DNA of 64,000 bases from Dehalococcoidia bacterium (GCA_963555965.3 OY821634.1:1523754-1587753), one strand, 5' to 3'; shown: positions 521 to 24,936, counted from the first letter of the stretch. Translations and numbers: made by a program. The notes: generated by a model from the letters alone, not told the origin.

Positions 521-1058
521 GCGCAGTGAGGAATCTGCCCTCCCCTTTTTGCGCCAGCAAAAGGGGGACGCGGCGAGCGCAGCGAGACGCAGGGGGTTCA
601 TACACTCGCAACCACCACACCCGCAATACCCACCACAGCATACACACCACCGGAGGGGCCGGGCATCATAGCCCATCATCGAAAATCATGGCAATCATAG
701 TTCAAAAAGGGAGCACATCCCTCCCCCTTTGTCCTTCGGACATTTCCCCCGCGAGCGGGGGAAACCTGGATACCCGCGTGCGCGGGTATGACGGGTATGC
801 ATCATAGCCCATCATCCAGCATCACCGCAATCACAGTTCAAATGCGGGGGCTTGGGGGGTGTGCGCGCGGTCTTGGGTGGCAATCCTTTCGATAATTCGA
901 GAATCTTGCCTATCCTTTTATTGCGCGGGGTAGTATAGACTGGTATGATGTTGTGCGTAAGTCGGAATGGCACGCGCTTTTTCGATTCACACACTAGCAT
1001 GTTGATTGCTAATGACGGACTGACGACAGGTCAAGCTTGGTAAAGGAAATGCAACGTG

Positions 1059-4000
1059 ATGAAATCCCCTACATCACTGATTAGTATCAGGAACGCAGTG
1101 GGCGCAATGCTGGCGCTGTCGGCTATCTTCGCCGTCGTCATTAGCACCATCTCTATGCCCGGAGACAACGCGACCGCGCAGACGACTGACCCGGTCGAGG
1201 TACGTGCAAAGGCGTGGTTTAACTCCCTGACCCTTGATGAGGCCATCGACGCATTGCTAGGAAAGGAAGCCGACGCTGTTGCAGATGGTGAAAACCCGAC
1301 CGATGCAACACGGGGCCGACAATACGTCGATGCCGATAACCCTGCCGTTATCAATAAGGATATCGAACTTATCAAAGCTGCTTGGGATGCCAAATCCGAT
1401 ACCCAGACGTTCTACGATGGCTTGCTAGCGAACGCTACTGCAGCAAATACAAGCCCCTACACTGTTACCGGTGCTGTTGCCCACAAGGCAAGAGTAAAGA
1501 GCCTTGTGGACGCTAGCACTGACGATCCCGGCGACATCTACGCCGTTGGTGAAGAGCCCAGTGATCTTAATCAAGCGATACGCGGATTCCAGAGCGTGGA
1601 ACTTTGGTGGGACCACTTGACATGTATTGAAGCTCGCATAGCTGTCGGTGAAGACAGCGATGATCTGAGCGATACGGACGCCAATGATACCGAGACTGGT
1701 TTCCAGATCGAAGCCAGCGATGTCTGCACGGCTACTGTGAACAGCGATAACACTGGCATCGTTGACGGCAGTAAAGTAGCGAAGGCTTATTCAGATTTGG
1801 GCGATGCTAAGGCTCAGGTTGACGAGGTCGGTCAAGCCATTCTAGGCCTTTCGAGCGCAGGTTCTGCCAGCAGTGCGGACAATGCTCGAGCGAAGGCTTG
1901 GTGGGACTCTTTGGACACTACGCGTCGAGTGCAGGCGCTCTACGGCGATGATGTGACCGCTGGGACAGCACCATCACAGCGCCCTTCGTCCGGTGATACG
2001 ATTGCGGCGACTCGGCTTTACTTGGCAACCCGTAAGTATGACGAAATCTCGGCAGGTATCAAATTCCCTGCAGGCGATGGCGGAACCCCCGCGGCCAAGA
2101 CGTTCACGCTCAACGAGGCCTCGATGAAACTCGCAACAGGTATCAAGAAGTTGGTCAATGACCGTGCGATTCTGATCTACGGCAACGGCGGCAGCGGAGG
2201 CAAATACGAAGGCGTCGATGCATGGTGGGATTCCATCGGTTGTCTCGAGAAGCAGATCGCGGTTGGTGAGGATAACGAACCTGTTTCCAGCCCGCCGGGA
2301 GAGTTTTGCCGGTCATTCAGCGGCGCCACCGGACTTGCCGATGATCAGGATCGAAATGGCACCAGTGCAGGAACCGATATCGACGGCCGCGGCGTTTCGC
2401 AACGTGAACGCGCGATGACTGTCGGACGAGTTTTGCTCAACTTGAAGTCGCTCCCGCAAGTCGCCGCTTGGTGGGACACCTTGAGCGGCGACCAGATGGT
2501 GAATGTGGTTTACGGCTCCCCTGCGAAGACGACTAGGACCGACACAGATACTAACGACGATGTCGACGAATCGGATGCGACGGCTACTGAGAAGGCGTTG
2601 TTCAAGAAGAAGTACGCGTCTTTGAGCGGCGCTGTGCTAATAACTCGCCTCCCATCGGCCACGACAACCTTGTTGACACGTCACGGTGTTACCGCAGGTT
2701 ACGATTTGAACGACAACGGTGCGGCGAACAATATCCTATCTGATCTTTCGGAAGTGACGCTCGGTTTTGACCTTAACGGCGACGGTGATGCGACAGATAC
2801 GGAAGTCGGTAACGTAGATGAAGCGAACTTCCGCGGCTTGAAAGCCATTGTCGGCGCCATTGCAACGGAGATCTTCGATCCGCCTACTTCATCTAGTGCT
2901 GACGACGGCAATACTGGTTTCTCAGGCGCCACAGTCAATGACGACGACGAGTTCGATCCTCCTTACCAGTCGGTCGGCGATTGGTGGGAGATTCTGGACT
3001 GCCGCACGATGCGCTTGGCGGTCGGCGAGGACAACGATTACCTCGACGCCGGCGATGCAAACGCTGATCCAGTTGTTCCGGCCGAGACTAGCGCGGGTGG
3101 TTTCTGCGGTCATTTGCCTGGAGCGGCTGCGGCCACTGCTGCTAACACGCTCAGCCAGGCTGCGCATGATCGCGTGGATGTAGTCGGTAAGGCGCTCCTC
3201 GCTCGATCCGAGGTTGGACGTCCTTCGTTTAACGTCGCTGTAGCTGGCATTCCCACGATTTCCGGCACCGCACAGGTCGGCTCGACTCTGACCGCCAACA
3301 CCGGCGGCATCAGCGACGGCGACGGACCGGGAACAACATTCAGCTACCAGTGGATACGAAGCGGTACTGACATCGCAGGCGCCACTGGCAGCACGTACAC
3401 GTTGACGGCTGCGGATGCTGGTGCCATGATCTCGGTTCGGGTGTCGTTCACAGACGGTGAACGCTACCCAGAGTCGACGACCAGCGTCGGCACATCCGTG
3501 GTCGCCGGTTCACCGGGCATGATCTCGAAGATCGAGCCTAATATCCGCGGCATTGCGATATCTGGCGGCGACACCGTGGTTCTGTCAGTGAACGTCTACG
3601 GTCTGCAAGACAAGATGGACAACAAGCTCGGCGGCACCTACACATGGTCTGTGAATGGCACGAGTGTCGACGGATCGGGTCGCGAGCTTTCCTACACTGC
3701 CCCGACCTCACCTGGCACCTACAATGTGAAGGCCACGCTCGCCGATGGCGACTGTGCGCCTAAGGACGAAACGATGCGTGCCTCCGCCTGTTCGGCCGAG
3801 TTCGAAGTCAAGGTGCTGCGCCCGTCGGCTCCACAGCCGGCGCCGGAAGCCCCGGTCAACCCGCCTGGCGAGATCCCCTCGATCCTCGCCGACAGCGAAG
3901 GCGAGCAGTACGAAGTGTTCACGCCGGTAGAAGGCGGCACGTTCACCGGCAACGGTTACTCGATAACTGCTGCTGCCGGCGCAGTCTCGAACGGCGAGTT

Positions 4001-4511
4001 CATCGGCGTCCGCATGTCTGACGACGGTGCGGCATCGAACGCGGGCATGACGCACCAGCGCTACACGCTCGGCGGCAACATGTACGGCGTCCACGCGGTG
4101 GACAGCACCGGTGCTGCGATCAGCTCGTACGTCCTTGAGGATGCGGCCACGGTCTGCGTACCGCTGCCGGACGAGCTGCGATCGAACATCTCGGACTTGG
4201 CAGTAGTGGCGATCAACGGCGACGGTTCGCTCACGATCCTGTCGGCGCAGGTTAGGATAACCACTGCTGGCACGATGGTTTGCGGCGGCTTGAGCAACCT
4301 TCCCGCCTCTGTGGCGGTAGGCAGCGCAGGCGCCCCGGCAGCCATCCCGACTCCGACACCAGAGCCCACGCCAGAGCCGCCCGTGACTGGTGGCACCGCC
4401 CCGGCATCGAGCGCCACGGTCCTCTGGGCCCTGCTCCTCGGCGTAGCAGTGCTGACACTAGGCGCTGCCCTAGTGATAGCCCGCCGTCGAGAGGGAACGC
4501 GAAAGAGCTAG
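1059..4511 (+). CDS. Large secreted, C-terminally anchored repeat surface protein (paralog A)
   Basis: Long ORF (track 1056-4511). ATG at 1059 is preceded by AAGGAA. N-terminal signal/anchor is AMLALSAIFAVVISTISMPGDNATAQ. Three alternating pairs of W(W/F)xxLx9(Y/L)G and WWxxhxCx6VGED motifs are present. Ig-like repeats are present (GTAQVGSTLTAN...FSYQWIRSG...YTLTAADAG). The tail is Pro/Thr linker, PVTGG, hydrophobic helix, then RRREGTRKS. Confidence 0.85.
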   Translation: MKSPTSLISIRNAVGAMLALSAIFAVVISTISMPGDNATAQTTDPVEVRAKAWFNSLTLDEAIDALLGKEADAVADGENPTDATRGRQYVDADNPAVINKDIELIKAAWDAKSDTQTFYDGLLANATAANTSPYTVTGAVAHKARVKSLVDASTDDPGDIYAVGEEPSDLNQAIRGFQSVELWWDHLTCIEARIAVGEDSDDLSDTDANDTETGFQIEASDVCTATVNSDNTGIVDGSKVAKAYSDLGDAKAQVDEVGQAILGLSSAGSASSADNARAKAWWDSLDTTRRVQALYGDDVTAGTAPSQRPSSGDTIAATRLYLATRKYDEISAGIKFPAGDGGTPAAKTFTLNEASMKLATGIKKLVNDRAILIYGNGGSGGKYEGVDAWWDSIGCLEKQIAVGEDNEPVSSPPGEFCRSFSGATGLADDQDRNGTSAGTDIDGRGVSQRERAMTVGRVLLNLKSLPQVAAWWDTLSGDQMVNVVYGSPAKTTRTDTDTNDDVDESDATATEKALFKKKYASLSGAVLITRLPSATTTLLTRHGVTAGYDLNDNGAANNILSDLSEVTLGFDLNGDGDATDTEVGNVDEANFRGLKAIVGAIATEIFDPPTSSSADDGNTGFSGATVNDDDEFDPPYQSVGDWWEILDCRTMRLAVGEDNDYLDAGDANADPVVPAETSAGGFCGHLPGAAAATAANTLSQAAHDRVDVVGKALLARSEVGRPSFNVAVAGIPTISGTAQVGSTLTANTGGISDGDGPGTTFSYQWIRSGTDIAGATGSTYTLTAADAGAMISVRVSFTDGERYPESTTSVGTSVVAGSPGMISKIEPNIRGIAISGGDTVVLSVNVYGLQDKMDNKLGGTYTWSVNGTSVDGSGRELSYTAPTSPGTYNVKATLADGDCAPKDETMRASACSAEFEVKVLRPSAPQPAPEAPVNPPGEIPSILADSEGEQYEVFTPVEGGTFTGNGYSITAAAGAVSNGEFIGVRMSDDGAASNAGMTHQRYTLGGNMYGVHAVDSTGAAISSYVLEDAATVCVPLPDELRSNISDLAVVAINGDGSLTILSAQVRITTAGTMVCGGLSNLPASVAVGSAGAPAAIPTPTPEPTPEPPVTGGTAPASSATVLWALLLGVAVLTLGAALVIARRREGTRKS

Positions 4512-4591: not shown

Positions 4592-6600
4592 GTCACCGCG
4601 TCCCCTCCCCTTTTTGCGCAGCAAAAGGGGGAATAGAAGGGGGTTCATACCGTTTGAACTGTGATGGGCTGTGATGTCGAATGATGGACTGTGATGGGTG
4701 TTGCGGGTATCCGGGTTTCCCTCCGCTCGCGGGGGAAATGTCCGAAGGACAAAGGGGGCGCGAAGGATTGCATCCCTCCCCCTTGATATTCAAGGGGGAA
4801 CAAAAGGGGGTTCATACCGTTTGAACTATGATGGGCTGTGATGTCGAATGATGGACTGTGATGGGTGTTGCCGGTATGCGGGTTTTCCTCCGCTCGCGGG
4901 GGAAATGTCCGAAGGACAAAGGGGGCGCGAAGGATTGCATCCCTCCCCTTTTTGCGGAGCAAAAGGGGGAATAGAAGGGGGTTCATACCGTTTTTGAACT
5001 GTGATGGGCTGTGATGTCGAATGATGAACTGTGATGGGTGTTGCGGGTATGCGGGTTTCCCTCCGCTCGCGGGGGAAATGTCCGAAGGACAAAGGGGGCG
5101 CGAAGGATTGCATCCCTCCCCTTTTTGCGGAGCAAAAGGGGGAATAGAAGGGGGTTCATACCGTTTTTGAACTATGATGGGCTGTGATTTGAAATGATGG
5201 ACTGTGATGGGTGTTGCGGGTATCCGGGTTTCCCGCCGCTCGCGGGGGAAATGTCCGAAGGACAAAGGGGGCGCGAAGGATTGCATCCCTCCCCTTTTTG
5301 CGGAGCAAAAGGGGGAATAGAAGGGGGTTCATACCGTTTGAACTATGATGGGCTGTGATGGGTGCGAGTGTATGAACCCCCTGCGTCTCGCTGCGCTCGC
5401 CGCGTCCCCCTTTTGCTGGCGCAAAAAGGGGAGGTACGCGTTCCCTCCCCCTTGATGCTCAAGGGGGAACAAAAGGGGGTTCATACCGTTTGAACTATGA
5501 TGGACTGTGATTTGAAATGATGGACTGTGATGCCCTGCCTCCTCCCCGTCTGTGCGGGTATGCGGGTTTCCCTCCGCTCGCGGGGGAAATGTCCGAAGGA
5601 CAAAGGGGGCGCGAAGGATTGCATCCCTCCCCCTTGATGCTCAAGGGGGAATAGAAGGGGGTTCATACCGTTTGAACTGTGATGGGCTGTGATGTCGAAT
5701 GATGGACTATGATCCCATCCTCCCCTCCCCGTCTGAGCAGGTATGCGGGTTTCCCGCCGCTCGCGGGGGAAATGTCCGAAGGACAAAGGGGGCGCGAAGA
5801 TTGCATCCCTCCCCCTTGAGCATCAAGGGGGAATAGAAGGGGGTTCATACCGTTTGAACTATGATGGGCTGTGATGTCGAATGATGAACTGTGATGGGTG
5901 TTGCGGGTATGCGGGTTTCCCTCCGCTCGCGGGGGAAATGTCCGAAGGACAAAGGGGGCGCGAAGATTGCATCCCTCCCCCTTGATGTTCAAGGGGGAAT
6001 AGAAGGGGGTTCATGCCGTTTTTGAACTATGATGGGCTGTGATTGGGAATGATGGACTGTGATGGGTGTTGCGGGTATCCGGGTTTCCCTCCGCTCGCGG
6101 GGGAAATGTCCGAAGGACAAAGGGGGCGCGAAGATTGCATCCCTCCCCCTTGATATTCAAGTTTTGAACTATGATGGACTGTGATGTCGAATGATGGGGT
6201 GTGATGGAGTCGGATATGTGTGATGGGTGCGGGTGTATGAACCCCCTGCGTCTCGCTGCGCTCGTCGCGTCCCCCTTTTGCGGAGCAAAAGGGGGAGGGT
6301 TACGGTGCCCCCTGCACTGAACAAAGGGAGGGCCGGGCATCACAGTTAATCATCAAAAAATCACAGCCCATCATAGTTCAAAAATCACCACAGCATACGC
6401 ACCAGCGGAGGGACGGGGCATCATAGCCCATCCTTCGACATCATGGCAATCATAGTTCAAAAAACGGCATGCACCCCCTTCTATTCCCCCTCAGAGAGGG
6501 GGAGGGAACGCGTACCTCCCCCTTTTGCTGACGCAAAAAGGGGAGGGGCCGGGCATCACAGCACATCGTTTCAAATCATCGCAATCATAGTTCAAAATTG
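4592..6600. repeat. Tandem array of about nine head-to-tail composite units (152-182 bp), ending in opposite-orientation modules
   Basis: The unit marker GGGGGTTCAT(A/G)CCG occurs at 4639, 4806, 4977, 5150, 5323, 5475, 5657, 5839 and 6005. Each unit carries a TTGAACT(A/G)TGATGG(G/A)CTGTGAT module. It also carries the hairpin GGTTTCCC-N10-GGGGAAA and one of two CCCTCCCC-led hairpins. From ~6340 the modules appear reverse-complemented (ATCACAGCCCATCATAGTTCAA at 6360-6381). Confidence 0.9.
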
Positions 6601-6673
6601 GATGCGTTGAGCAGTTGCCGTTGTTAGACTGGTTAGATGTCGGTTTTTAGGCTGAAAATAGAAGAGAGAGTTG

Positions 6674-9600
6674 ATGAAATCCCATACCATGGCATCGCTG
6701 ATGCAGACTAAGGTTAGGCACGCACTGGGCGTCATGCTGGCGATCTCGGCTATCTTCGCCGTCGTCATTAGCACCATCTCAATGCCCGGTGACAGGGCTA
6801 CGGCGCAAGTGGATGATGCTGATGCCGAAGTCTCGAAACGTGCCGCCGCGTGGTTCAACTCCTTGACCCTCGATGAAGCGATCAACGCAATTCTCGGAAA
6901 AGAAGCCGACGCTGACAATGGCACGGACGGCCGACAGTACGTCGATACCGATGACCCTGCCGATATCAATCAGGCTATCGAATTTATCTACGATGCTTGG
7001 ACGAAGAAATCCGCAACCCAGTCGTTCTATGATGGCTTGCCGGCGAGCACGTCAGTGGCGAGTAACAGCGGTCTTGCCAATCACGTTGCGGTCAAGGCCC
7101 TCGTAGATGGCAGTACTTCCGGGGCTACCGAGCTTTACGCAGTCGGTAACCAGATTTCGAGTGTCCAAGGCATCCGCGCATTCCAAAGCGTCAAACTGTG
7201 GTGGAACCACTTGGATTGCACGGAAGCCCGTACAGTCGTGGGTGAAGACAGTGATGATCTGCTCAATAGCATCGACGACGACAATGATAGCAACACCGCA
7301 AACGTTTTGGAATCCAGTAGTGTCTGTCAGTTTCCTGCAGGCACAACAGTTGGCGGCGACGCTACTGCGAATGCTATCTCCTACGACAGTCTGTCCGATA
7401 AGACCCAGGTGAACCAAGTAGGCAACGCCCTGCTCGGTCTTACTAACGGCGGAACGTACAGCGCATCCGACAACGCGATGGCCAAGCGCTGGTGGGGCAA
7501 GCTGAACGGGACTCAGAGAGCCTTCGCGCTCTACGGCGACGCATTGACCTTAACCACCCCAACGACGAACCAAGGAAACACCGCGGTCAGTGTGCCGCGA
7601 CCTTTGATCGCAAGCCATGGATACGACGATATAACTACGTCGATCACCTTCACAGTCGATGTTGATGGCACATTCACCGAATTGCCTATGGATGCCGCTT
7701 CAAAAGCGTTGGTTCCCGAAGTGAAGGCACTGATCAACGACCGAGCGATGCTGATCTACGGCAACGGCGGTACCGGCGGCAAATATGAGGGTGTCGATGC
7801 TTGGTGGAATTCCATCGGTTGTCTCGAGAATCAGATATCGGTTGGTGAAGACAACGAACCTGTTGCTAGCACGCCGGGCGAGTTCTGCGTCGCGTCATTC
7901 AGCAGTCTCGCCAAAACGCAGGATAGAAATGCTGATCCCAGAACCGTTTCTGACCGGGAACGCGCGATGACTGTCGGGCGTGCGCTGCTCAATCTTGCGG
8001 ATATCCCGGATTCCGGCGCTTGGTGGAACACGTTGAATGCAACGCAGATGGTCAACGTGGTTTACGGCGACCCGTTGGAGATGGAAGGTGACCCGGCGGC
8101 TCCGAAAGCATCTGAAGCGGACCGCAAAGCGTTCCAGCAGATGTACGCCAATTTGGGCACCGTTCGTGTCGTCGCATCAGATCTGCCTGATGTCATGATT
8201 GCCGATACGTCAGGCCTGCTTACCAGACAAGCCGTCCCAACCGAGCTATTCGACCATGACAACAACACAGGCACCAGTCAGGTGCCAGGCTACTTGGCCA
8301 AAGATGTCGTAGATGCCATTGCGACCGAAATCTTCGATCCGCCGCACGGGTTGTATGGCGCATATCGCAGGCAGAATAATGAAGCAATCGTTAACAACCT
8401 GGACGCTAACATCAGTGAAAACGTCACCAACAACCAACCCGATGACGACAACGAGTTTGACCCTCCTTATCAATCGGTCGGCGATTGGTGGGAGACTCTG
8501 GACTGCCGCGTGATGCGCTTGGCGGTCGGCGAAGACAACGATTACCCCGACATCGAGACCGCTGGCTTAGAGCCTGAGGACTACAAAATCGAGACCAGCA
8601 TTTACTGCGGTCACTTGCCCGGCGCGGCTAAGGCAACAAACGCTGCTAACACGCTCATCCAGGATGCGCATGATCGCGTGGATGTAGTCGGTAAAGCCCT
8701 TCTTGCACGTAGCGAGGTCGGCCGTCCGTCGTTCAACGTCGCTGTAACTGGCATCCCGACGATCACCGGCACTGCGAAGGTAGGTTCGATGTTGACCGCC
8801 AACCCCGATGCCATCAAGGACGGCGACGGAGTGGGGGCCTTCAGCTACCAGTGGATACGAGACGGTGCTGACATCTCCGGGGCCACCGGCAGCACGTACA
8901 CGTTGACCGCTGCGGATGCGAATGCGATGATATCGGTTCGAGTGTCGTTCACAGACGGCGAGCGCTACCCAGAGTCGACGACCAGCGTCGGCACATCCGT
9001 CGTCGCCGGCTCCCTGGGCAGAATCTCCAAGATAGAGCCGGCGATCCGCGACATCAAGTTGTCCGGCGGCGGCACTGTTGTTCTGTCCCTGAACGTCTAC
9101 GGTGTGCAGGGCGATATAGACAACAGCCTCGGCGGCACATACTCATGGTCCGTGAATGGCACGAGCATCGAGGGATCGGGCCGTGAGCTTTCCTACACTG
9201 CCCCGTCCTCGCCCGGCACCTACAATGTGAAGGCGACGCTGGCCGATGGCGACTGCCGTCCAAAAGACGAATCGAATCGTGTATCTGCCTGTTCGGCCGA
9301 GTTCGAGGTGAAGGTGCTGCGTCCGTCGGCTCCACAGCCGGCGCCGGAAGCCCCGGTCAACCCGCCTGGCGACATCCCCAGCATCCTTGCAGACTCCGAG
9401 GGCAACCAGTACGAAGTGTTCACGCCGGTAGAAGGCGGTACGTTCAGTGGCGACGGCTACTCGATCACCGCCGCATCTGGTGCCGTTCCGAACGGCGAGT
9501 TCATCGGTGTCCGCATGTCCGACGACGGTGCGGCATCGAACGCGGGCATGACGCACCAGCGCTACACGCTCGGCGGCAACATGTACGGTGTACACGCTGT

Positions 9601-10012
9601 TGACAGTTCCTCGAACGCGATCACCAGCACCGAGCTTGACGATCCTGCCACGGTCTGCGTACCGCTGCCGGACGAGCTGCGATCGAACATCTCGGACTTG
9701 GCAGTAGTGGCGATCAACGGCGATGATTCGCTTACGATCCTGTCAGCACGGGTCAGGATCACAACTGCTGGCACCATGGTGTGCGCTGGCTTGAGCAGCC
9801 TCCCGGCATCATTGGCGGTAGGCAGCGCCGGAGCCCCGGCAGCCATCCCGACGCCGACGCCGGAGCCCACGCCCGAACCGCCCAACACTGGTGGCAGCGC
9901 CCCGGCATCGAGCGCCACGGTCCTCTGGGCCCTGCTCCTCGGCATCGCAGTGCTGACACTAGGCTCCGTCCTGGTAATAGTCCGCCGTCGAGAGGGAACG
10001 CGAAAGAGCTAG
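6674..10012 (+). CDS. Large secreted, C-terminally anchored repeat surface protein (paralog B)
   Basis: Long ORF (track 6671-10012), ATG at 6674. Signal region, six WW-type motifs, Ig-like repeats and C-terminal tail (PNTGG, helix, RRREGTRKS) match paralog A. The C-terminal ~460 aa are nearly collinear with paralog A. Confidence 0.85.
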   Translation: MKSHTMASLMQTKVRHALGVMLAISAIFAVVISTISMPGDRATAQVDDADAEVSKRAAAWFNSLTLDEAINAILGKEADADNGTDGRQYVDTDDPADINQAIEFIYDAWTKKSATQSFYDGLPASTSVASNSGLANHVAVKALVDGSTSGATELYAVGNQISSVQGIRAFQSVKLWWNHLDCTEARTVVGEDSDDLLNSIDDDNDSNTANVLESSSVCQFPAGTTVGGDATANAISYDSLSDKTQVNQVGNALLGLTNGGTYSASDNAMAKRWWGKLNGTQRAFALYGDALTLTTPTTNQGNTAVSVPRPLIASHGYDDITTSITFTVDVDGTFTELPMDAASKALVPEVKALINDRAMLIYGNGGTGGKYEGVDAWWNSIGCLENQISVGEDNEPVASTPGEFCVASFSSLAKTQDRNADPRTVSDRERAMTVGRALLNLADIPDSGAWWNTLNATQMVNVVYGDPLEMEGDPAAPKASEADRKAFQQMYANLGTVRVVASDLPDVMIADTSGLLTRQAVPTELFDHDNNTGTSQVPGYLAKDVVDAIATEIFDPPHGLYGAYRRQNNEAIVNNLDANISENVTNNQPDDDNEFDPPYQSVGDWWETLDCRVMRLAVGEDNDYPDIETAGLEPEDYKIETSIYCGHLPGAAKATNAANTLIQDAHDRVDVVGKALLARSEVGRPSFNVAVTGIPTITGTAKVGSMLTANPDAIKDGDGVGAFSYQWIRDGADISGATGSTYTLTAADANAMISVRVSFTDGERYPESTTSVGTSVVAGSLGRISKIEPAIRDIKLSGGGTVVLSLNVYGVQGDIDNSLGGTYSWSVNGTSIEGSGRELSYTAPSSPGTYNVKATLADGDCRPKDESNRVSACSAEFEVKVLRPSAPQPAPEAPVNPPGDIPSILADSEGNQYEVFTPVEGGTFSGDGYSITAASGAVPNGEFIGVRMSDDGAASNAGMTHQRYTLGGNMYGVHAVDSSSNAITSTELDDPATVCVPLPDELRSNISDLAVVAINGDDSLTILSARVRITTAGTMVCAGLSSLPASLAVGSAGAPAAIPTPTPEPTPEPPNTGGSAPASSATVLWALLLGIAVLTLGSVLVIVRRREGTRKS

Positions 10013-10056: not shown

Positions 10057-10093
10057 GGGGCAGGCACAAACAACGTGCCTGCCTCTTTTTTTT
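10057..10093 (+). terminator. Rho-independent terminator of paralog B
   Basis: Stem GGGGCAGGCAC, loop AAACAAC, stem GTGCCTGCCTC, then T8. It is a near-identical copy of the terminator at 4556-4591. Confidence 0.85.
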
Positions 10094-10320
10094 GAACTAT
10101 GATGGGCTGTGATTGGGAATGATGGGGTGTGATCCCCTCCCCTCCCCGTCTGAGCGGGTATGCGGGTTTCCCTCCGCTCGCGGGGGAAATGTCCGAAGGA
10201 CAAAGGGGGCGGGAAGATTGCATCCCTCCCCTTTTTGCGGAGCAAAAGGGGGACGCGGCCAGCGCAGCGAGACGCAGGGGGTTCATACACCCGCACCCAT
10301 CACAGCCCATCATAGTTCAA
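10092..10320. mobile_element. MITE-like unit bounded by perfect 22-bp terminal inverted repeats
   Basis: TTGAACTATGATGGGCTGTGAT at 10092-10113 has its exact reverse complement at 10299-10320. The interior equals one unit of the 4.6-6.2 kb array. Confidence 0.45.
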
Positions 10321-10575
10321 GCATCCCCCCAACCCCCTTACGCTCCGCGAAGGGGGAGAGATTCCTCGTTGCGCTCGGAATGACAGAGGGCCAGCCAAAC
10401 CCCAAAATCACAGCCCATCATTTCAAATCATCGCAATCATAGTTCAAAAGACGGCATGAACCCCCCGCGTCTCGCTGCGCTGGCACCCCCTTCAATTCCC
10501 CCTCAGAGAGGGGGAGGGAAAGGATTTTGCTGACGTAAAACGTAGGGGCGGTTCGCGAACCGCCCCTACTGTTAT
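10321..10575. repeat. Mosaic repeat modules including a perfect 28-bp palindrome
   Basis: The palindrome GTAGGGGCGGTTCGCGAACCGCCCCTAC lies at 10542-10569. A reversed GTCATTCCGAGCG module and a CCCCCTCAGAGAGGGGGAGGG hairpin are also present. Confidence 0.85.
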
Positions 10576-10584
10576 CCTCTGGGT

Positions 10585-10935
10585 ATGGCGACTAAAGACA
10601 TGGAACGCGTTTCGCATCTGGAAGGTGCGTATGAGCACATGGCTACGAAGGCTGAACTAGCGACTCTGAACGGCGATTATCGGCTTCAGTTCGAGAGGAT
10701 CGAGCATCGTTTCGAGTCGATCGACCGTCGTTTCGAGGCTATTGACCGTCGTTTCGAGGCTATCGAAGCAACAATGCGTTCGATGCAAGAAGTGCTCGTC
10801 CAGATAGTGGAACGCCTCGATCGCATTGAGGAACGTCTGGATCGGCTTGAGAATTTGAACTCTCGAGCTATCGGCTTTCAGACGGAGGCTAGGACTCTGC
10901 GCGACGATGGTGATGAATTTCTAGGCGGTCCCTAG
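10585..10935 (+). CDS. Small coiled-coil protein (heptad RFE(A/S)IDR repeats), function unknown
   Basis: 116-aa ORF with heptad-like repeats RFESIDRRFEAIDRRFEAIE and ERLDRIEERLDRLENLNSRAIGF. It shares a C-terminal motif with the ORF at 17453-17698. It is bracketed by perfect palindromes at 10542-10569 and 10964-10991. Confidence 0.55.
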   Translation: MATKDMERVSHLEGAYEHMATKAELATLNGDYRLQFERIEHRFESIDRRFEAIDRRFEAIEATMRSMQEVLVQIVERLDRIEERLDRLENLNSRAIGFQTEARTLRDDGDEFLGGP

Positions 10936-10939
10936 AAAT

Positions 10940-11310
10940 TTTGCGGTGCCGCGGTTTCGGCTAGTAGGGGCGGTTCGCGAACCGCCCCTACCAAGTCCTT
11001 CCCCCTTTGCTGACGCAAAAGGGGAGGAGAGGCGGGCGTCCCTCCCCCTTGATGCTCAAGGGGAGCACCGCACCCCTCCCCCTTTTTGCTCCGCAAAAAG
11101 GGGGAATGAAAGGGGGTTCATACAGCGCGTAGGGTGTATGAACCCCTGCGTCTCCCTGCGCTGGCACCCCCTTCAATTCCCCCTCAGAGAGGGGGAGGGA
11201 AAGAATTTTGCTGACGCAAAAGGGGGAGGAGAGGCGGCGGCATCACAGCCCATCATTTCAAATCATCGCAATCATAGTTCAAAAGGGGGCGGTTCGCGAA
11301 CCGCCCCTAC
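10940..11310. repeat. Mosaic repeat modules with two palindrome copies
   Basis: A perfect 28-bp palindrome lies at 10964-10991. A perfect 22-bp core GGGGCGGTTCGCGAACCGCCCC lies at 11286-11307. Its flanking CTA (11307-11309) is the stop codon of the minus-strand gene. Confidence 0.85.
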
Positions 11311-12893
11311 ACCGCCTCTCCTGCCAGTATGCCTGTCAGTCTCTCGTGGTCTACGGCGACCTTGCCGTTGACTACTACGAACGGGATGCCCTCTGGGTAC
11401 TGTTCGGGGTCTTCAAATGTGGCGCGGTCGGTGATGCGGTCGGAGTCGAATACTACGATGTCTGCGAATTTTCCTTTTGCGATTTCGCCTCGATCTTTGA
11501 GTCCGAAGCGAAGTGCTGCGTTCTGGGACAGACGCTGAACCATCAACTCTAGGGGGATGTTGTGACGGCGTCGGAGGCGTCCGATCATGCGCGGGAAGCA
11601 CCCGTAGGCGCGCGGATGCACCATGCCGCCAGTGGGAATGGCGTCTGATCCCACCATGTAGTCCGGACGTTGCATCAACTCCATGATGTCGGCCTCGACC
11701 TGCTGCCACACACGCACGCTGGCAGGCGGCGCGCCACGGAAGCCGCAGTTGAGTTCCTCTTCGAGCATGACTCGGCACATCATCTCTTCGACGGATACGT
11801 TCCACTCCGCCGCCACGTCGTCGAAGTCCATACCTTCCAAATGCTTGTTCGCCTCTGAGCCGATGCTCGACCATACGTTTCCCGAGACACCGCCTCGGGT
11901 TCCGCTACGGATGCCTGCAATCACCTCTTCTCGGTTCTCACCGTCAGCCAGTAGTTTCAACATCGCTTCGGGTCCGCCCTCGTGGAACCAGCTGGGGAAG
12001 AATGTCTGCGGGAAGCTGGAACCTACAGGATAGGGGTAGGTCTCTAACGTGACATCTACGCCGTCTGACTTGGCGCGTTCGACGGGTTCGAGTATCGATT
12101 CGAGGTCGCCTGCGGAGTCTGGTTGCGTACGGTAGTGCTCAAGGTGTATCTGTGCGCCGGATCGACGTCCGATCTCCATCGCCTCTTCGACACCGCCGCC
12201 TGCGAAACCGCGATCAACGTTGTGGTTTCGAAGGTGGATGGAAAGCGGACGCTCGTACTCCTTGACGACCTTCATGATGTTTACGAGTTCGTCGGTGTCG
12301 GAGAATGAGTTGGGGTAGTAGGAGAGTCCGGTGGAGAATCCGCACGCGCCCTGTTCAAAACTCTCACGGATTATGCGCTCGACGCGTTTCCAGTTGTCGC
12401 CGGTCAGAGGCTCGTCGATCATGCCGCCTACGGCTTCGAGTCGGACGGGTCCGTGACCGAGGAACATGGCGACGTTGCACGATGTCTTGTTGTGGTAGTT
12501 CGACATCGCGGTGCCGTACGTCGACATGTCCAGATCTTCGGACGCGTAGCCCAAGATGCCGCTCAGGTAGTGCATGTACATCAAGTAGTTGTCGCGTGAG
12601 AGCGGCGCGAGGGTGAGACCGTCTGGAGCGATGATCTCGGTAGTGACTCCCTGTCGGATGCCGCAAGCGTGTTGACCGTCCCTGAGCAACGCAGCATCGG
12701 CGTGTGAGTGGACATCTATGAAGCCTGGGGTGACAGCGAGGCCGTTGGCGTCGATAACACGTATGGCGTTTGCCGCGGAGAGATCGCCGATAGCGGAGAT
12801 GCGTTTGCCGTCAATGCCGACATCGGCTCGGATGCCGGGTGCGCCGGTGCCATCGTAAACAGTGCCATTGATGATTAGCAGGTCGAATTGCAT
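11307..12893 (-). CDS. D-aminoacylase / N-acyl-D-amino-acid deacylase family amidohydrolase
   Basis: 528 aa. The N-terminus IINGTVYDGTGAPG...GIDGKRISAIGDL...VTPGFIDVHSHAD is typical of the D-aminoacylase amidohydrolase family. Confidence 0.85.
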   Translation of the reverse strand: MQFDLLIINGTVYDGTGAPGIRADVGIDGKRISAIGDLSAANAIRVIDANGLAVTPGFIDVHSHADAALLRDGQHACGIRQGVTTEIIAPDGLTLAPLSRDNYLMYMHYLSGILGYASEDLDMSTYGTAMSNYHNKTSCNVAMFLGHGPVRLEAVGGMIDEPLTGDNWKRVERIIRESFEQGACGFSTGLSYYPNSFSDTDELVNIMKVVKEYERPLSIHLRNHNVDRGFAGGGVEEAMEIGRRSGAQIHLEHYRTQPDSAGDLESILEPVERAKSDGVDVTLETYPYPVGSSFPQTFFPSWFHEGGPEAMLKLLADGENREEVIAGIRSGTRGGVSGNVWSSIGSEANKHLEGMDFDDVAAEWNVSVEEMMCRVMLEEELNCGFRGAPPASVRVWQQVEADIMELMQRPDYMVGSDAIPTGGMVHPRAYGCFPRMIGRLRRRHNIPLELMVQRLSQNAALRFGLKDRGEIAKGKFADIVVFDSDRITDRATFEDPEQYPEGIPFVVVNGKVAVDHERLTGILAGEAV

Positions 12894-13091
12894 CGGTTCT
12901 CCGTCCGTTCAAAGTATGGTTGTGCGGCTTGTGATAGCAGGATATCGCGAAAGCTTAGAATTGACTCATAGAATCGACCATTTTTCGATTCCTGTATCGC
13001 TTCAACTTGGCGAGAAAAGAGAATCCTGATAGATTAATGGCACTGTGCTCAAGTGTAGTCACGTGTATCAACACAAAGAGAAGGAACAGAC

Positions 13092-13298
13092 ATGAATGCA
13101 TCTACTGTTGAGCAGGCAACCGATCCAAAATCCGACCTGTCCGACGAAGACGTTCGTCACGCGGTTGAGATCGCCAAGGGTTTGAGAGAAGTGGCTGCCG
13201 CTGCGAAAAACTATAAGGCGGGAGAATATGCCTTGGGTTTGAAGGTGAGTAAAGGTGGAGAGGTTGTTTTCACGGTGACACGCAAAGGCTGGCTATGA
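13092..13298 (+). CDS. Hypothetical small protein (68 aa)
   Basis: The ORF is preceded by GAAGGA ~7 nt upstream. It lies in an AT-richer divergent intergenic region. No recognisable motif. Confidence 0.4.
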   Translation: MNASTVEQATDPKSDLSDEDVRHAVEIAKGLREVAAAAKNYKAGEYALGLKVSKGGEVVFTVTRKGWL

Positions 13299-13513
13299 AC
13301 GAATTGGGTGAGTTCTTCGGCAATTGGTGGCAAGAATTCGCATCGGGAGGTGGAGGAATAGCAGTAGGTTACTGGTTAAGAGGGGTTGTAAGTAACATTC
13401 GGTTCCAGTTTAGAGGTCAGTTGAACATAGACGTTGGCAACCGCAATCTATTGGATACTCCACCACGTGCGCGGTCAGATGGGACACCAGTGAACGGACA
13501 CGAAGAAGAATGA
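13295..13513 (+). CDS. Hypothetical small protein (72 aa), start overlaps upstream stop (ATGA)
   Basis: ATGA start/stop overlap with 13092-13298. It has a Gly-rich, possibly membrane-associated segment GGGGIAVGYWLRGVV. Confidence 0.35.
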   Translation: MNELGEFFGNWWQEFASGGGGIAVGYWLRGVVSNIRFQFRGQLNIDVGNRNLLDTPPRARSDGTPVNGHEEE

Positions 13514-13587
13514 CGCTGAAGCGCTTGGAGGTCGCACGGATTGTGTCCCCTCTCTCTTGATGGGGGAGGGATAGAGTGAGAGTGATC

Positions 13588-15186
13588 TCACTCTTTGGCG
13601 TAGTGGTCCCGCTCTAAAAAGGTGTTTGCCCAGGAGGCGGTGCCTTTGAGTGAGGCGTCGGTGAAGGTTACGGGGTGTTTGAGCATCTCTTGTTCCTCGC
13701 CGTAGAGTTTGAGAGTATTGTAGGCGCGTAGGTAGATGCAGTCTTTGTCGAGGATTTCGCACTTTCCGGCTCGTGTGCCGCCGCAGGGTCCGTTGCGCTG
13801 GTTCTTGACGCACTGGGATTCGGGGCAGAGTTCGGCGATTTCGGGGAGTGAGCAGTCGCCGCAGTCTCGGCAACCGTAAAGCGGAACTTTCATCATCTGC
13901 TCTGCGGCGTGGGCCACTTTGGTCGCGGTCTTGCTCTTCTCGATCTGGCGGTAGATAGCCGCGCTGGGTTTGAATCCGGGCGCGTCGCGATCGAATATCG
14001 CGTGCTTGCCGAAGCGGCCGATGCGATACGCGAGATCCGGGTGCAGCGCGCGTCTAAGGATCGACGCGGGACGGCCTCGGCGCGCGTCGTATTCGAGGTT
14101 CAGTTCGCCAGAAGCGGTGTTGGGAGTGTCGCCGGGCTCGAAGAGGTAGAACTCGTCAGGTTGTGAGTATCCGATCTCGGCGGCGGCTTCCTTCCAATCG
14201 TCGCCAGTGATACTTTCTGCGATGTCTAGTATCTGCTCGATGCGTTTGTATGTGAGCCTGCCGGAGAGGTAGACGCCGCTGTAGCCAGTTCCGCGCAGGA
14301 CAGCGATCTGCTTGGCTGCGAACTCGTTGAAGAAGGCACGTCCGCGGTCTTTCGATTTCGCAGCGCGGTTCGCAACATCGACGAGTTCGGAGTTTACAGC
14401 GACACCGGGGATGCCCCATCGACCGAAAAATCGCGCGGCGGGCGCACTCAAGACGAAGATCGAACCGAGTATCGGCGGTGCTTGATTCCCGTGTTTGTAA
14501 TTGAGGTATCGGATTAGCTCGTGATGTTTCCGGGCATCGTAGCCGATCTGAGACACGAGCCATTCGGCGCCAGTTCGGAGCTTAAAGTCCATCTTGTAGA
14601 GTTGCGTCAGATACTCGCCCTCGTACAGCTTGAACGGGTTGACCGCGGCACCGGGATGGAACGCAGTGTGTCCGAGTTCAGTGTCGGCATTGCGACGTCC
14701 GGGAAGTGTTACCCGTAAGCCTTCGTTCATGCGACGTATCATCTCGAGCAGCCCGACAGAGTCGGTGTCGAATACGGGTTGTGCTTGACCCGAAAATCCG
14801 TCTACCGGGTAGTCGCCGGAGAGGCACAAGACATTGCGAAATCCGATGCTTGAGAGCGACCACAAGCGTCCTTCAAGCGCGTTGCGGTTGTAGTCCTTGC
14901 AAGAGAGATTGATTACGACCTCGGCATCGCCACCCAGCAGTTCGCGGCCCAATGTTTCGGGAGTGATGTGTGGGTTCCCGCCGGGGTTGTCGGTGAAACA
15001 GACGGCGTCGACTCTTCCGCCCTGCGACGCTGCTTTTGCAAGGTCTATAGAGTGGCGAGCGCCTTCTTCCATGGCGAGGCCGCGGGAGGTTTCGATCTCG
15101 ATCGCGACCTTAAAGCCGTCAGATAGACGCGCGGTTATGCCGGTTTCAGCGGCGAGTGGATCTTCATCGGAATGCATGGAGTTCAA
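13588..15186 (-). CDS. Methylenetetrahydrofolate reductase-like protein with C-terminal Cys-rich MetV-like domain
   Basis: 532 aa. The N-terminal MTHFR-type TIM-barrel region contains FTDNPGGNPH and LCLSGDYP. The C-terminus CRDCGDCSLPEIAELCPESQCVKNQRNGPCGG resembles the MTHFR_C/MetV zinc-ribbon-like domain. Confidence 0.75.
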   Translation of the reverse strand: MNSMHSDEDPLAAETGITARLSDGFKVAIEIETSRGLAMEEGARHSIDLAKAASQGGRVDAVCFTDNPGGNPHITPETLGRELLGGDAEVVINLSCKDYNRNALEGRLWSLSSIGFRNVLCLSGDYPVDGFSGQAQPVFDTDSVGLLEMIRRMNEGLRVTLPGRRNADTELGHTAFHPGAAVNPFKLYEGEYLTQLYKMDFKLRTGAEWLVSQIGYDARKHHELIRYLNYKHGNQAPPILGSIFVLSAPAARFFGRWGIPGVAVNSELVDVANRAAKSKDRGRAFFNEFAAKQIAVLRGTGYSGVYLSGRLTYKRIEQILDIAESITGDDWKEAAAEIGYSQPDEFYLFEPGDTPNTASGELNLEYDARRGRPASILRRALHPDLAYRIGRFGKHAIFDRDAPGFKPSAAIYRQIEKSKTATKVAHAAEQMMKVPLYGCRDCGDCSLPEIAELCPESQCVKNQRNGPCGGTRAGKCEILDKDCIYLRAYNTLKLYGEEQEMLKHPVTFTDASLKGTASWANTFLERDHYAKE

Positions 15187-15237
15187 TTATCGCACTGCGA
15201 ATAAGATTATCCCCATTGCCACAACGTACCGAATCCC

Positions 15238-15723
15238 ATGTCATCACGCATCTTTGACCGCATATCTCTAGCTCTGGCAACCGGCTTAGGAGTTGCGTAC
15301 CTCACGCCGTTTGCGAAGGCGACGCTTGCTAGCGCGGCAACCGTCGTTGTCTTCGCGGCGCTCCACTGGGGCGACAGTGTGGTTAGGCCGTCGTTTGTAG
15401 TCGCAATTGCGGCGATATTCTTCATCGGGGTTTACGTTTCAAGCAGAGTTTCATCGGATGAAGACCCCGACCCTAGCAAGGTGGTGATTGATGAGGTCGC
15501 GGGTCAACTCGCAGCGCTTCTAATCCTCGCAAACGTCAACTTATGGTCACTGCTAGCCGCATTCGTGCTTTTCCGCCTATTCGACATCACGAAGCCACTC
15601 GGCATCCGACGGCTAGAAGCCATCCCTAATGGCTGGGGAATAATGCTCGACGACCTTGCTGCCGGATTGCTCGCCGCGGCAATCATCAACTCGGCAATCC
15701 TGATCGGCCTCGCCATTAATTGA
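15238..15723 (+). CDS. pgpA: Phosphatidylglycerophosphatase A
   Basis: 161 aa with IDEVAGQL, FRLFDITKP and GWGIMLDDLAAGLLAA, the characteristic PgpA motifs. Confidence 0.85.
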   Translation: MSSRIFDRISLALATGLGVAYLTPFAKATLASAATVVVFAALHWGDSVVRPSFVVAIAAIFFIGVYVSSRVSSDEDPDPSKVVIDEVAGQLAALLILANVNLWSLLAAFVLFRLFDITKPLGIRRLEAIPNGWGIMLDDLAAGLLAAAIINSAILIGLAIN

Positions 15724-15726
15724 GGA

Positions 15727-17424
15727 TTATCCGGAACGACGTTCTCCAACGTTCCCAGGTCCGCGATGCTGCGAAATGTGGTCTCGTTTGCCTTTGAACC
15801 GCTTCGCCAATACTCCCTCGCGAACGGGCCATAGCACCACCCCAGCGCGTTCAGCCCAAGCATCGTATTCGTCGATCATCGACGCCACTCGTTGCGGTTC
15901 AGATGCCGCGTAGTCATGCTGCTCGGTGCGATCCTCAGGGATGTTGTAAAGCTCCCACGCGCAGTCCCACTCGGCAACGAGCTTCCAATCGCCGATACGG
16001 ATGCCCCGGTTACCTTCATGCTCCACAGCGACCGGCTTCTCGCGAGACCAATCTTTGCCCTCCAATATCGGAACTATCGACTCGCCTTCCAACGGAGTAA
16101 TCTCGTTGCCAGCGTATTCAGTCGGGTAGGCAGCGTCGACTGCATCGTAGATCGTCGCCGAGATGTCGGTGATGTGCATCGGGATGTTGTCGACGATTGC
16201 GCTTTCCGTGATCGTTTCGGGCCAGTGGACGATGAACGGAGTGGAGATCCCGCCTTCGTGTATCCACCGCTTGAAGAACCGGAAAGGTGTGTTCGAGACG
16301 TTCGCCCACGGGAGTTCAACAGCTTGGAAAGTGGTGTCGGGACCAGGGCGTAGCTCAGGTATGTCGCCGACACGCACGGGTTGTCCGTCCAGGGTTGGTT
16401 CCGTTGCCCATTGCGACGGGTCGGGCCAATCGTCGTCCTCCTGGAAAAGCTCCGCGCAACCGCCGTTGTCCGAGAGAAACATGATGAGCGTGTTATCGAA
16501 CTGGCCATGTCGTTTGAGAGTGTCGATGACGCGTCCGACCCCGCGATCGACCTGCTCGATCATGGCACAGTACACGGCCATGCGAATATCTTCGTACTCT
16601 TTGTTCCGCACTTCGTTCCACGGCGGCGCGTCCTCGTCGCGTGCAGAGATTGGCCATTTATCGTCGACGATACCGAGTGCCTTCTGCTGTTCGTGACGGG
16701 AGCCTCGAATCTCGTCCCAACCGCGCATGTATTTGCCTTCGTACTTGGCGATATCGTCTTCCCACGCGTGCAATGGCCAGTGCGGCGCCGTAAACGCGAT
16801 GTATTGGAAGAACGGCTCGCCATCGGTCATCGCGTCGTCGATCTGAGACACTGCGTGGTCGCTGATGGCATCTGTGAGGTGGAAATCGGAGGATTCGACG
16901 TTTATCAAGGTGTCTTGGAGCACCAGAGCTTTGGGATTCCAGAACGAGTCGGCAGCCTCAAGGAGACCGAAGTATTTGTCGAAGCCGCGCTGGGTTGGTA
17001 GGGGATGCGTCTCGTCGCCTGGCATCCATTGGTCGCGGAGCCGCCGATCGTATCCACCGCCGACGTGCCACTTGCCTGACATTAAAGTGCGATACCCAGC
17101 CGATTTGACGACTTCGGCGATCGTGACGCAGCTATCGTTCAGATAGCCTCGATAACTCGGTACACCCAAGTCAGCAGTCATCTGTCCGATGCCGGCTTGG
17201 TGGGGGTTCAAGCCTGTAAGAAGAGCGGCACGAGACGGGCAGCAGCGAGCACCGTTGTACATCTGCGTGAATCGGATGCCGTTGTTGCCGAGGGAGTCGA
17301 GGTTAGGGGTGTTGATATCGCCGCCGTAACAGCCGATGTCGGAGAAGCCGAGGTCATCGACCATGATGATGATGACATTTGGACGCGACGCGTTCGAATT
17401 ATCTTCCGTCTGGTTCGACATCAT
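15727..17424 (-). CDS. Arylsulfatase (formylglycine-dependent sulfatase family)
   Basis: 565 aa. NVIIIMVDDLGFSDIGCYGG and the CCPSRAALLTG (C-x-P-x-R) formylglycine motif are present. Confidence 0.9.
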   Translation of the reverse strand: MMSNQTEDNSNASRPNVIIIMVDDLGFSDIGCYGGDINTPNLDSLGNNGIRFTQMYNGARCCPSRAALLTGLNPHQAGIGQMTADLGVPSYRGYLNDSCVTIAEVVKSAGYRTLMSGKWHVGGGYDRRLRDQWMPGDETHPLPTQRGFDKYFGLLEAADSFWNPKALVLQDTLINVESSDFHLTDAISDHAVSQIDDAMTDGEPFFQYIAFTAPHWPLHAWEDDIAKYEGKYMRGWDEIRGSRHEQQKALGIVDDKWPISARDEDAPPWNEVRNKEYEDIRMAVYCAMIEQVDRGVGRVIDTLKRHGQFDNTLIMFLSDNGGCAELFQEDDDWPDPSQWATEPTLDGQPVRVGDIPELRPGPDTTFQAVELPWANVSNTPFRFFKRWIHEGGISTPFIVHWPETITESAIVDNIPMHITDISATIYDAVDAAYPTEYAGNEITPLEGESIVPILEGKDWSREKPVAVEHEGNRGIRIGDWKLVAEWDCAWELYNIPEDRTEQHDYAASEPQRVASMIDEYDAWAERAGVVLWPVREGVLAKRFKGKRDHISQHRGPGNVGERRSG

Positions 17425-17452
17425 TGCTTCCTTAGGGACGCAAGTCCGATCG

Positions 17453-17698
17453 CTAAGTGTCGCGAGTGGCGAAGCCGATGGCTCTTTGGTTAAGTTGCTC
17501 CAAGCGATCCAAGCGTTCTAGGACTGAGCCCAATATCGTTTCGATCCGGTCAAATCTCGCCGCATTCTCCGTGTTGATTTGCATCATATGAGCCTGCAAC
17601 TGAGCTTGCAGCTGCATCAGGCTGGCGAGCGTTTGCTGGTTACTGGCGATGGTGTTCTCTCGCAAGGCATCAAGTTCTTCAGAAGTCACGATAAGCAA
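17453..17698 (-). CDS. Small coiled-coil protein, paralog of 10585-10935
   Basis: 81 aa ending RFDRIETILGSVLERLDRLEQLNQRAIGFATRDT. A GAGGAG box suggests the true start may be the GTG at 17689. Confidence 0.5.
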   Translation of the reverse strand: MLIVTSEELDALRENTIASNQQTLASLMQLQAQLQAHMMQINTENAARFDRIETILGSVLERLDRLEQLNQRAIGFATRDT

Positions 17699-17745
17699 AT
17701 CTCCTCTGTCGCGTCAATCTTAACAGAGCGCGAATCTTCTACTGT

Positions 17746-19317: not shown

Positions 19318-19450
19318 CGAATGTTCCTCGGTGTAGACGATTGTGGCTTTGTGGCAAAGGTTAATCTATCACCGCCGGGCATTTCTGGTGCTAGACTTTG
19401 AAACGCATTGACGCTATGTGAGCCGGTCAACGGCGCAAACGGAGAAACCG

Positions 19451-20611: not shown

Positions 20612-20637
20612 CGAGATGAAAAAGGTTTGGGTAGCGA

Positions 20638-21921: not shown

Positions 21922-21934
21922 TTGGGATTCGACC

Positions 21935-22672: not shown

Positions 22673-22704
22673 AGAACTGCCGGAAATTACGAAGGTGCAA
22701 TACC

Positions 22705-24608: not shown

Positions 24609-24936
24609 CGCTTAAGTTCCTATCTCTAAAGTCTGACGACTTCCTAGTTCCGTAGCAGACAACAACATTCGTCTGCCACGAACCCATTTCTAGACCTCAA
24701 TCTTCAACATCATCACAAGAAATCTTCAAGATCATGTCAAGACCCAACCCCAATCACACCCGCGTGTAGGTGGAAATCCAGGTTCCGCCGCTCGCGAGGG
24801 AAATGCCCGAAGGACAAAGGGGGCGCGAAGCATCACACCCGATCATCACAAAATCATCGCAATCACAGTTGAAAAATCACCCCAAAATATAGTCTTAACC
24901 TAAGCACAACTTCCAACCCGCAAGGAGATACGATAC

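Follow-up and report, generated by a model that had tools for sequence, protein, structure and literature searches.

Sortase-anchored adhesins of the MSCRAMM type follow a recognizable plan in which a signal peptide, a head, immunoglobulin (Ig)-like repeats, a Pro/Thr spacer, an (L)PxTG motif, a hydrophobic helix and a basic tail succeed one another. Archaeal surface-layer (S-layer) glycoproteins of the PGF-CTERM/archaeosortase type combine beta domains, a Thr/Pro stretch, a terminal motif, a membrane helix and basic residues in an envelope without peptidoglycan. Among smaller surface-protein elements, the WxL domain has two WxL motifs, and some S-layer proteins have three SLH domains. Here we describe two neighboring open reading frames (ORFs), ORF1 and ORF2, in a 64-kb stretch of a Dehalococcoidia genome (GCA_963555965.3, OY821634.1:1523754-1587753; "the window" hereafter means this whole stretch of 64,000 nucleotides). 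The ORF1 product consists of a leader, three copies of a unit that we call the WW module, a beta/Ig-like region, a Pro/Thr linker and a sorting-type tail, and ORF2 has the same plan (Table 1). The two are tandem paralogs whose modular products probably sit on the cell surface of a sponge-associated, SAR202-type bacterium. The overall plan, an anchored modular surface protein, is already known; the head domain is new, and its restricted distribution across phyla is unusual.

ORF1 and ORF2 are 62% identical over their full length. ORF1 contains six W[W/F] dipeptides (residues 54, 184, 282, 390, 472 and 643), as does ORF2 (residues 61, 177, 274, 378, 451 and 606), and 12 of the 15 Trp residues of ORF1 fall within its six dipeptides; composition predicts 0.49 such dipeptides in ORF1, and the Poisson probability of at least six is 1.3e-5. 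An initial annotation had described an alternating pair of Trp-Trp motifs, A and B, arranged as three pairs per paralog, and the motif sequences quoted there were found exactly at the W[W/F] sites of both ORFs in that A/B alternation. It had also proposed a second conserved Cys after each B motif. This residue is present in all three modules, the first Cys standing at +6 and the second 22-35 amino acids (aa) on, so that the proposed spacing of 25-40 aa was slightly long. A search with ORF1 residues 1-735 returned 71 relatives (P0001-P0071), every one named "hypothetical protein" in its source and none with a precomputed Pfam domain, and the six W[W/F] sites occupy matching positions in almost all of the full-length relatives among them. 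Across a 31-sequence alignment the Trp pair is invariant at five of the six sites and the first-position Trp at the sixth, and the Cys residues of modules 1 and 3 are invariant. The motif periodicity, whose loss in homologs had been singled out as fatal to the proposal, is retained in the roughly 70 homologs.

The N-terminal region was cut into three units at the boundaries given in Table 1, and their profiles were compared by hhalign. All three pairs proved homologous over the whole unit with a probability of at least 99% (E = 3.6e-21 for module 1 against 2, 3.6e-22 for 1 against 3, and 2.9e-19 for the remaining pair). Each unit bears an A motif (WWxxLxxxQxVxALYG) together with a helix around LVNDRWxWIY, and a B motif (WWxxxxCxxxRIAVGxDN; compact consensus WWxxLxCxxxRIAVG-D/E-x-N) followed by the second Cys. 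A further motif conserved in each unit, (E/D)RVxxVGxALLG, was missing from the initial list and is called the C motif here. These elements (A motif, LVND helix, B motif with its Cys, second Cys, C motif) occur in this order in all three units of both ORFs, and this series places each of the units in the WW module family. Two proteins from Gammaproteobacteria/Pseudomonadales are built of compact units of ~134 aa in which these motifs keep their order but no insertions occur. A hidden Markov model (HMM) of 134 positions, built from 72 compact modules of unrelated proteins, matched ORF1 with 144.5 bits and ORF2 with 148.7 bits (E = 2e-46 and 1e-47, respectively) in six pieces each, the best single match in ORF1 being module 3 (47.6 bits, E = 1.9e-16). 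Six pieces per ORF correspond to three modules, each split by an insertion into an A half and a B half. As judged by these profile comparisons, A and B both belong to one ~134-aa domain rather than being independent alternating motifs, and the three 190-265-aa units of ORF1 are copies of that domain expanded by variable acidic insertions. The alternation first noted is real, but its two members are the N-terminal and the central helix hairpin of a single domain. Between the A and B hairpins there is a 10-column match (WWxxLxxxxM, E = 4e-7); an internal duplication giving rise to both is possible, though not established.

Across all modules the residues W, W, L, G, W, W, G and G are invariant, and A, Y, C, A, N and C nearly so. 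No catalytic-site-like pattern is found among the invariant residues, which argues against an enzyme. The insertion of module 3 in ORF1 holds, at 2700-2822 (residues 549-589), two D-x-N-x-D/N-G stretches, YDLNDNG.. and FDLNGDGDATDTE, that resemble dockerin or EF-hand-type calcium loops; the insertion is absent in ORF2, and no dockerin Pfam match was obtained on the ORF1 insertion.

The two Cys residues behave as a unit. In 53 full-length homologs, modules 1 and 3 carry both residues in 53 of 53 cases; for module 2 the full pair is there in 27 and missing in 26, and a single Cys occurs in none. Over all module types in the 319 proteins collected, both residues are present in 338 modules, neither in 22 and one in 9, with the limit that these co-presence counts are not phylogenetically independent. 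The nine single-Cys cases trace to truncation at contig ends, to frameshifts or to a spurious match of the search pattern, leaving none in intact proteins. The pair is kept or lost together, and because no single-Cys module occurs in an intact protein, this covariation argues strongly for a Cys-Cys bond, which fits an extracytoplasmic location. One disulfide per WW module, as the initial annotation had suggested, is therefore strongly supported by the pattern of sequence conservation. Such a bond would tie back the loop that comes after the B hairpin, and the helix of the C motif closes the domain.

The head was compared with the Pfam-A 2025 and NCBIfam 20.0 domain libraries and, for structures, with PDB and BFVD by Foldseek. 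ORF1 residues 1-728 gave no matches in either library, scans of both ORFs and of the compact relatives yielded nothing usable for the head, and module 2 of ORF1 together with the module consensus had no matches at E <= 10, WxL and SLH included. When 53 modules were scanned singly at E <= 1 no recurring family appeared, and PDB sequence and profile searches of the head returned nothing (best E 1.1 and 1.4). A precomputed PF18897 (Gp3-like) label on the relative P0112 scored 22.7 against a cut-off of 23.6 and was taken as chance. Our literature searches brought up no description of the head domain. An AlphaFold2 model of the full ORF1 protein (31 sequences) reached a predicted local distance difference test (pLDDT) score of 73.6, with module cores at 80-95 that consist mostly of short helices. 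Foldseek searches with this full-length model were swamped by the C-terminal Ig-like domains and hence uninformative on the head, and a single-module model was therefore made from ORF1 residues 268-468 (53-sequence single-module alignment). This model reached a pLDDT of 87.7 and a predicted template modeling score (pTM) of 0.84. In it the A motif forms helices at model positions 10-18 and 21-29, followed by a small beta insertion and a long helix at 87-108; the B motif forms helices at 120-126 and 129-135, and the C motif one at 182-193. Foldseek with the single-module model found nothing in PDB at E <= 10, and its BFVD matches were noise (best E 3.6). The initial statement that the N-terminal ~700 residues belong to no known family thus held in every search: no confident match of the A/B modules to a characterized domain emerged from Pfam or NCBIfam, and the AlphaFold and Foldseek check proposed alongside it yielded a confident module model with no PDB fold match. 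On the strength of these searches the WW module is a previously undescribed domain, absent from Pfam, NCBIfam and PDB, and its predicted structure makes a new fold likely, although not proven.

The remaining parts of ORF1 are of more familiar type. The leader (63% mean pairwise identity across the family) reads as a hydrophobic stretch followed by A-x-A-Q, both conserved in the family, and has the sequence features of an N-terminal signal peptide. The region behind the modules is all-beta in the AlphaFold2 model, and Foldseek with the full model led from it to tandem Ig-like proteins (best E 4e-7). Sub-threshold domain matches (PKD, 15.8 against a cut-off of 23.5; ZirU_fam, E = 1.9e-8 and below cut-off) and a match to the Ig domain of a phage decoration protein (E = 2.4e-4) were also obtained, and the model supports an Ig-like beta-sandwich fold for this C-terminal region. 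At the tail motif, homologs carry LPDTGG or LPETGA and score 16.4 and 15.8, one of them reaching the cut-off of 15.9 for TIGR01167 (LPXTG_anchor); other CTERM models gave weak, sub-threshold matches to the tail. A literature search on sortase in sponge SAR202 or LPXTG in Dehalococcoidia found nothing relevant. Ig-like domains and an anchoring-type tail behind the modules had been anticipated from the outset, and both the beta/Ig-like region and a C-terminal sorting-type tail are present.

The outer parts are shared more widely than the head. Many of the weak matches in profile searches cover only profile positions 1 to ~55, that is, the leader, and the leader sequence MMKSPTSLIRFRNAVGVMLALSAIFAVVIS is common to other proteins of 814-1672 aa in related Dehalococcoidia that have different heads, some of them Calx-beta-like. 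Most of these leader-sharing proteins also carry the same linker, PxTGG motif, helix and RRR tail (P0163, P0168, P0175, P0185, P0194, P0200, P0203, P0204 and P0207); within the window this combination is seen only in ORF1 and ORF2. The sequence comparison suggests that leader and tail form a dedicated display chassis with exchangeable heads, an idea that recalls the special signal peptides found on some surface proteins of Gram-positive bacteria. Head and stalk also diverge to different extents. Mean pairwise identity in the family is 43% for the head modules and 60% for the beta region, and between ORF1 and ORF2 protein identity is 53% in the head and 85-90% in the stalk and 3' part, the 3' halves being compared at 3240-4508 and 8744-10009. 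At four-fold degenerate sites the two ORFs are 55-59% identical in the head and 65-84% in the 3' part. The gap between head and stalk in protein identity is much larger than the gap at silent sites, which points to different constraint on the two halves; partial gene conversion in the 3' half is also possible on these alignments.

The WW module is not confined to giant proteins: small secreted proteins and lipoproteins have it in compact form, and long tandem arrays of it are found in other bacterial phyla. A scan of one genome per species recovered 16 loci in Dehalococcoidia/SAR202 metagenome-assembled genomes (MAGs) and two in Gammaproteobacteria and Pseudomonadales MAGs. When 1.84 billion cluster representatives were searched exhaustively with a profile, only 161 proteins matched at E <= 1e-3, part of them in the leader only; a further profile search gave 173 proteins. 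Among the best 120 of the 173, from which sizes, names and sources were taken, most are ~160 aa (one module) or ~300 aa (two modules), and all are called "hypothetical protein"; their named source MAGs include Spirochaetaceae, Acidobacteriota, Deltaproteobacteria and Albidovulum. Further named sources are Chloroflexi and Acidimicrobiales, from the search that gave 71 relatives, and Gammaproteobacteria, Pseudomonadales and SAR202, from the genome scan. A signal peptide or a lipobox heads every inspected relative whose N-terminus is intact. Compact modules recur every ~133 residues, with 60 residues from A to B, and the compact form is present from one to eight or more times in other secreted proteins: P0073 (1954 aa) has 12 matched stretches and eight compact modules by WW spacing, and P0075 has nine stretches and five modules. 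A by-eye resemblance of the P0073 C-terminus to an autotransporter barrel was dropped, as Pfam gave no such match. In other proteins the module is joined to Big_9, He_PIG, PKD, Calx-beta, LapA and fn3 domains, and to cadherin-like ones.

Several carriers of the module come from sponges. The carrier bin127 is from Aplysina aerophoba (PMC5649159), the carrier series jk18x7bins (jk18x7bins.79) is from Ircinia cf. reteplana (PMC9531527), and the SB066x MAG series, one member of which is a carrier, is listed among sponge Entoporibacteria MAGs (PMC7883664). The Gammaproteobacteria MAG SB0665_bin_27 (locus L017, 292-11622) encodes a protein of 680 aa in which three compact WW modules are combined with a beta-rich C-terminal domain present in duplicate, and the gene adjoins one for a secreted ankyrin-repeat protein and one for a 2530-aa fn3-repeat protein. 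Ankyrin-repeat and fn3-repeat genes are typical "eukaryote-like" genes of sponge symbionts. The WW module resembles the repeat proteins of sponge symbionts (ankyrin, fn3, cadherin, PKD) in that it is secreted and repeated, has carriers in several unrelated symbiont phyla and is sometimes encoded next to them, but differs from them in matching no described Pfam or NCBIfam family.

We favor the reading that the ORF1 and ORF2 products are anchored surface proteins that serve as adhesins or in host contact, with a probability of roughly 0.55. In the mechanism that we propose, the C-terminus would hold the protein at the envelope, the beta domains would act as a stalk, and the three fast-evolving WW modules would form the outermost head and bind a ligand outside the cell, which would most probably belong to the sponge matrix, to the surface of a host cell or to a neighboring cell. 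Such a protein would resemble MSCRAMM-type adhesins not only in the order of its parts but also in a head that evolves faster than the stalk and, in a homolog, in a tail that reaches the TIGR01167 cut-off. It would differ from them in its head, an unrelated, disulfide-containing domain predicted to be mainly helical, and in its PPxTGG motif. We also entertain, as a tentative extension that we hold to be clearly less probable than surface anchoring and adhesion, that the WW module is a new-fold secreted host-contact element shared horizontally among unrelated sponge symbionts, jointly those of the Dehalococcoidia, Gamma-, Delta- and Alphaproteobacteria, Spirochaetes, Acidobacteria and Acidimicrobiia. 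The module might then bind, for example, a sponge matrix or cell-surface glycan such that the bacterium is retained rather than digested, and the Dehalococcoidia would display three copies of it on their dedicated leader-stalk-anchor chassis.

Several observations weigh against the adhesin reading. The tail motif is PPVTGG in ORF1 and PPNTGG in ORF2 rather than LPxTG, and the ORF1 tail scores 13.0 against TIGR01167, with the ORF2 tail also below the cut-off. A regular-expression search for the sortase active-site signature TLxTC found none within the 64-kb window. Sponge SAR202 genomes have been reported to lack peptidoglycan synthesis genes (PMC6306507), which sets this lineage apart from the MSCRAMM-bearing one and makes classical sortase anchoring to a wall doubtful; the ORF1 protein may simply be membrane-anchored via its tail. 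The residues invariant across modules look like the core of a fold and not like an obvious binding site, and no conserved partner genes were seen around four small single- or two-module genes. Sponge origin is documented for a minority of the carriers, two sets, with a third in a sponge-listed MAG series. Finally, a ligand-binding function is read from the architecture only.

The main rival to ligand binding is an S-layer or envelope scaffold, in which ORF1 and ORF2 would supply the main structural coat and lattice contacts would form between the WW modules themselves. The size of ~1100 aa, the leader, the beta domains, the Thr/Pro-rich linker and the C-terminal membrane anchor recall archaeal S-layer glycoproteins, as would an envelope of the kind reported for SAR202 sponge symbionts, without peptidoglycan genes (PMC6306507). 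The recovered related Dehalococcoidia genomes have one to three loci each, and one related genome has the tandem pair in synteny. SbsC and Sap appear among the Ig-like Foldseek matches of the full model, but these matches stem from generic Ig-like domains, and the archaeal comparison is loosened by a motif that is PxTGG rather than PGF and by the weak response of the other CTERM models. A lattice role specific to these cells would also leave unexplained the presence of the module in 160-aa secreted proteins and lipoproteins and in arrays of five to eight or more in Gram-negative lineages. A leader-plus-anchor chassis that carries other heads is a better fit to a family of displayed proteins than to a single coat protein. 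We therefore regard the scaffold as somewhat doubtful, if still the strongest competitor of the adhesin or host-contact reading.

A non-adhesive secreted domain, merely fused to a surface chassis in these cells, is less probable again and in our judgment unlikely; it might bind a small molecule or metal, protect against host or phage, or act on neighboring microbes. It would account for the small size of most family members, which pair one or two modules with nothing more than a signal peptide or lipobox (among the best 120 of the 173), and it draws some support from the polar loops GDGN and CAHYPGSG, strongly conserved in the compact form, and from the acidic insertions of the expanded form, some of which (ORF1 residues 549-578) resemble calcium-binding D-x-N-x-D/N-G loops. 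Counting against it are the lack of a typical conserved catalytic residue pattern and of partner genes in the neighborhoods, and the frequent fusion to Ig-like, PKD, Calx-beta, cadherin-like and fn3 domains, which speaks for surface display. Most improbable of all, and by a wide step, is that the head is a divergent member of a known family that was overlooked, for example a WxL cell-wall-binding domain, SLH or a helical repeat. Its two Trp motifs per domain recall the two WxL motifs, its three N-terminal copies recall three SLH domains, and all share Trp-containing motifs repeated within a surface-protein domain. In contrast to WxL and SLH, the WW module is mostly helical by prediction, has one disulfide and lies at the protein end far from the anchor, and the empty Pfam scans, the empty PDB profile search and the Foldseek search of a model with a pTM of 0.84 speak against any such oversight.

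Table 1. Features of ORF1 and ORF2, in positions of the 64-kb window
Feature	Position	Strand	Description
ORF1	1056-4511	+	1151 aa; GTG start, next codon (1059) is ATG; from the ORF list
Leader	1056-1181	+	ORF1 residues 1-42, MMKSPTSLI..AIFAVVISTISMPGDNATAQ; one AlphaFold2 helix, 14-31; putative cleavage site
WW module 1	1185-1865	+	ORF1 residues 44-270; A motif 51-69, B motif 183-203, Cys190/Cys224, C motif 255-265
WW module 2	1866-2441	+	ORF1 residues 271-462; A motif 279-297, LVNDR helix 366-376, B motif 389-409, Cys396/Cys418, C motif 451-463
WW module 3	2442-3239	+	ORF1 residues 463-728; A motif 470-487, B motif 642-662, Cys649/Cys684, FCGHLPGA, C motif 707-717; long acidic insertion
Beta-sandwich/Ig-like stalk	3240-4331	+	ORF1 residues 729-1092; Cys900/912, Cys1034/1076
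Linker and tail	4332-4508	+	ORF1 residues 1093-1151: PTPTPEPTPEPP, VTGG motif, hydrophobic helix (AlphaFold2, 1124-1142), RRREGTRKS
ORF2	6671-10012	+	1113 aa; TTG start, ATG at 6674; paralog with the same plan; coordinates of its parts mapped through an alignment
ORF2 leader	6671-6808	+	
ORF2 WW modules	6812-7456, 7457-7993, 7994-8743	+	
ORF2 beta region	8744-9832	+	
ORF2 tail	9833-10009	+	

The surroundings of the pair are partly conserved. In a related 2.71-Mb genome the tandem pair is syntenic, and YidC (60KD_IMP) and a KH/R3H (Jag-like) gene lie a few genes upstream of it. The window continues at 11307-23781 with genes for an amidohydrolase, an MTHFR-like protein, a sulfatase, an MlrC/M81 peptidase, an enolase-superfamily enzyme and a DNA methylase; all but the DNA methylase gene follow the tandem pair in the same order in that genome. 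Extensive carbohydrate degradation has been described in sponge-associated Chloroflexi (Bayer et al. 2018, PMC6306507). The gap between ORF1 and ORF2 is filled at 4603-6205 by a tandem array in which a unit of 167-173 bp occurs about ten times at 80-98% identity, and both giant genes are flanked by partial copies, which lie at 201-777, 6360-6507, 10091-11123 and 24785-24833; no Rfam family was found for this intergenic repeat, and one unit folds only slightly better than its shuffles (z = -1.8). Upstream of ORF1, a 20-bp unit is repeated four times at 443-523 with 90% matches. On the minus strand, 29540-33247 encodes a 1235-aa protein with no Pfam match; it begins like a lipoprotein, contains a long Pro/Thr-rich linker and repeated W..DG(I/F)...E units, and repeats beta-type segments in its C-terminal part.

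How sponges recognize and retain their symbionts is unsettled, and the candidates so far are mostly eukaryote-like repeats such as ankyrins. The WW module, which occurs almost only in a few environmental genomes, several of them from sponge symbionts that belong to different phyla, offers a concrete protein to test for host binding, and its confident predicted structure without a solved match makes it a candidate new fold. Even if its function should prove mundane, it constitutes a new domain family of ~300 members that is fit for inclusion in domain databases. The shared chassis with exchangeable heads, in turn, suggests how uncultured SAR202-type cells may build their outer surface.

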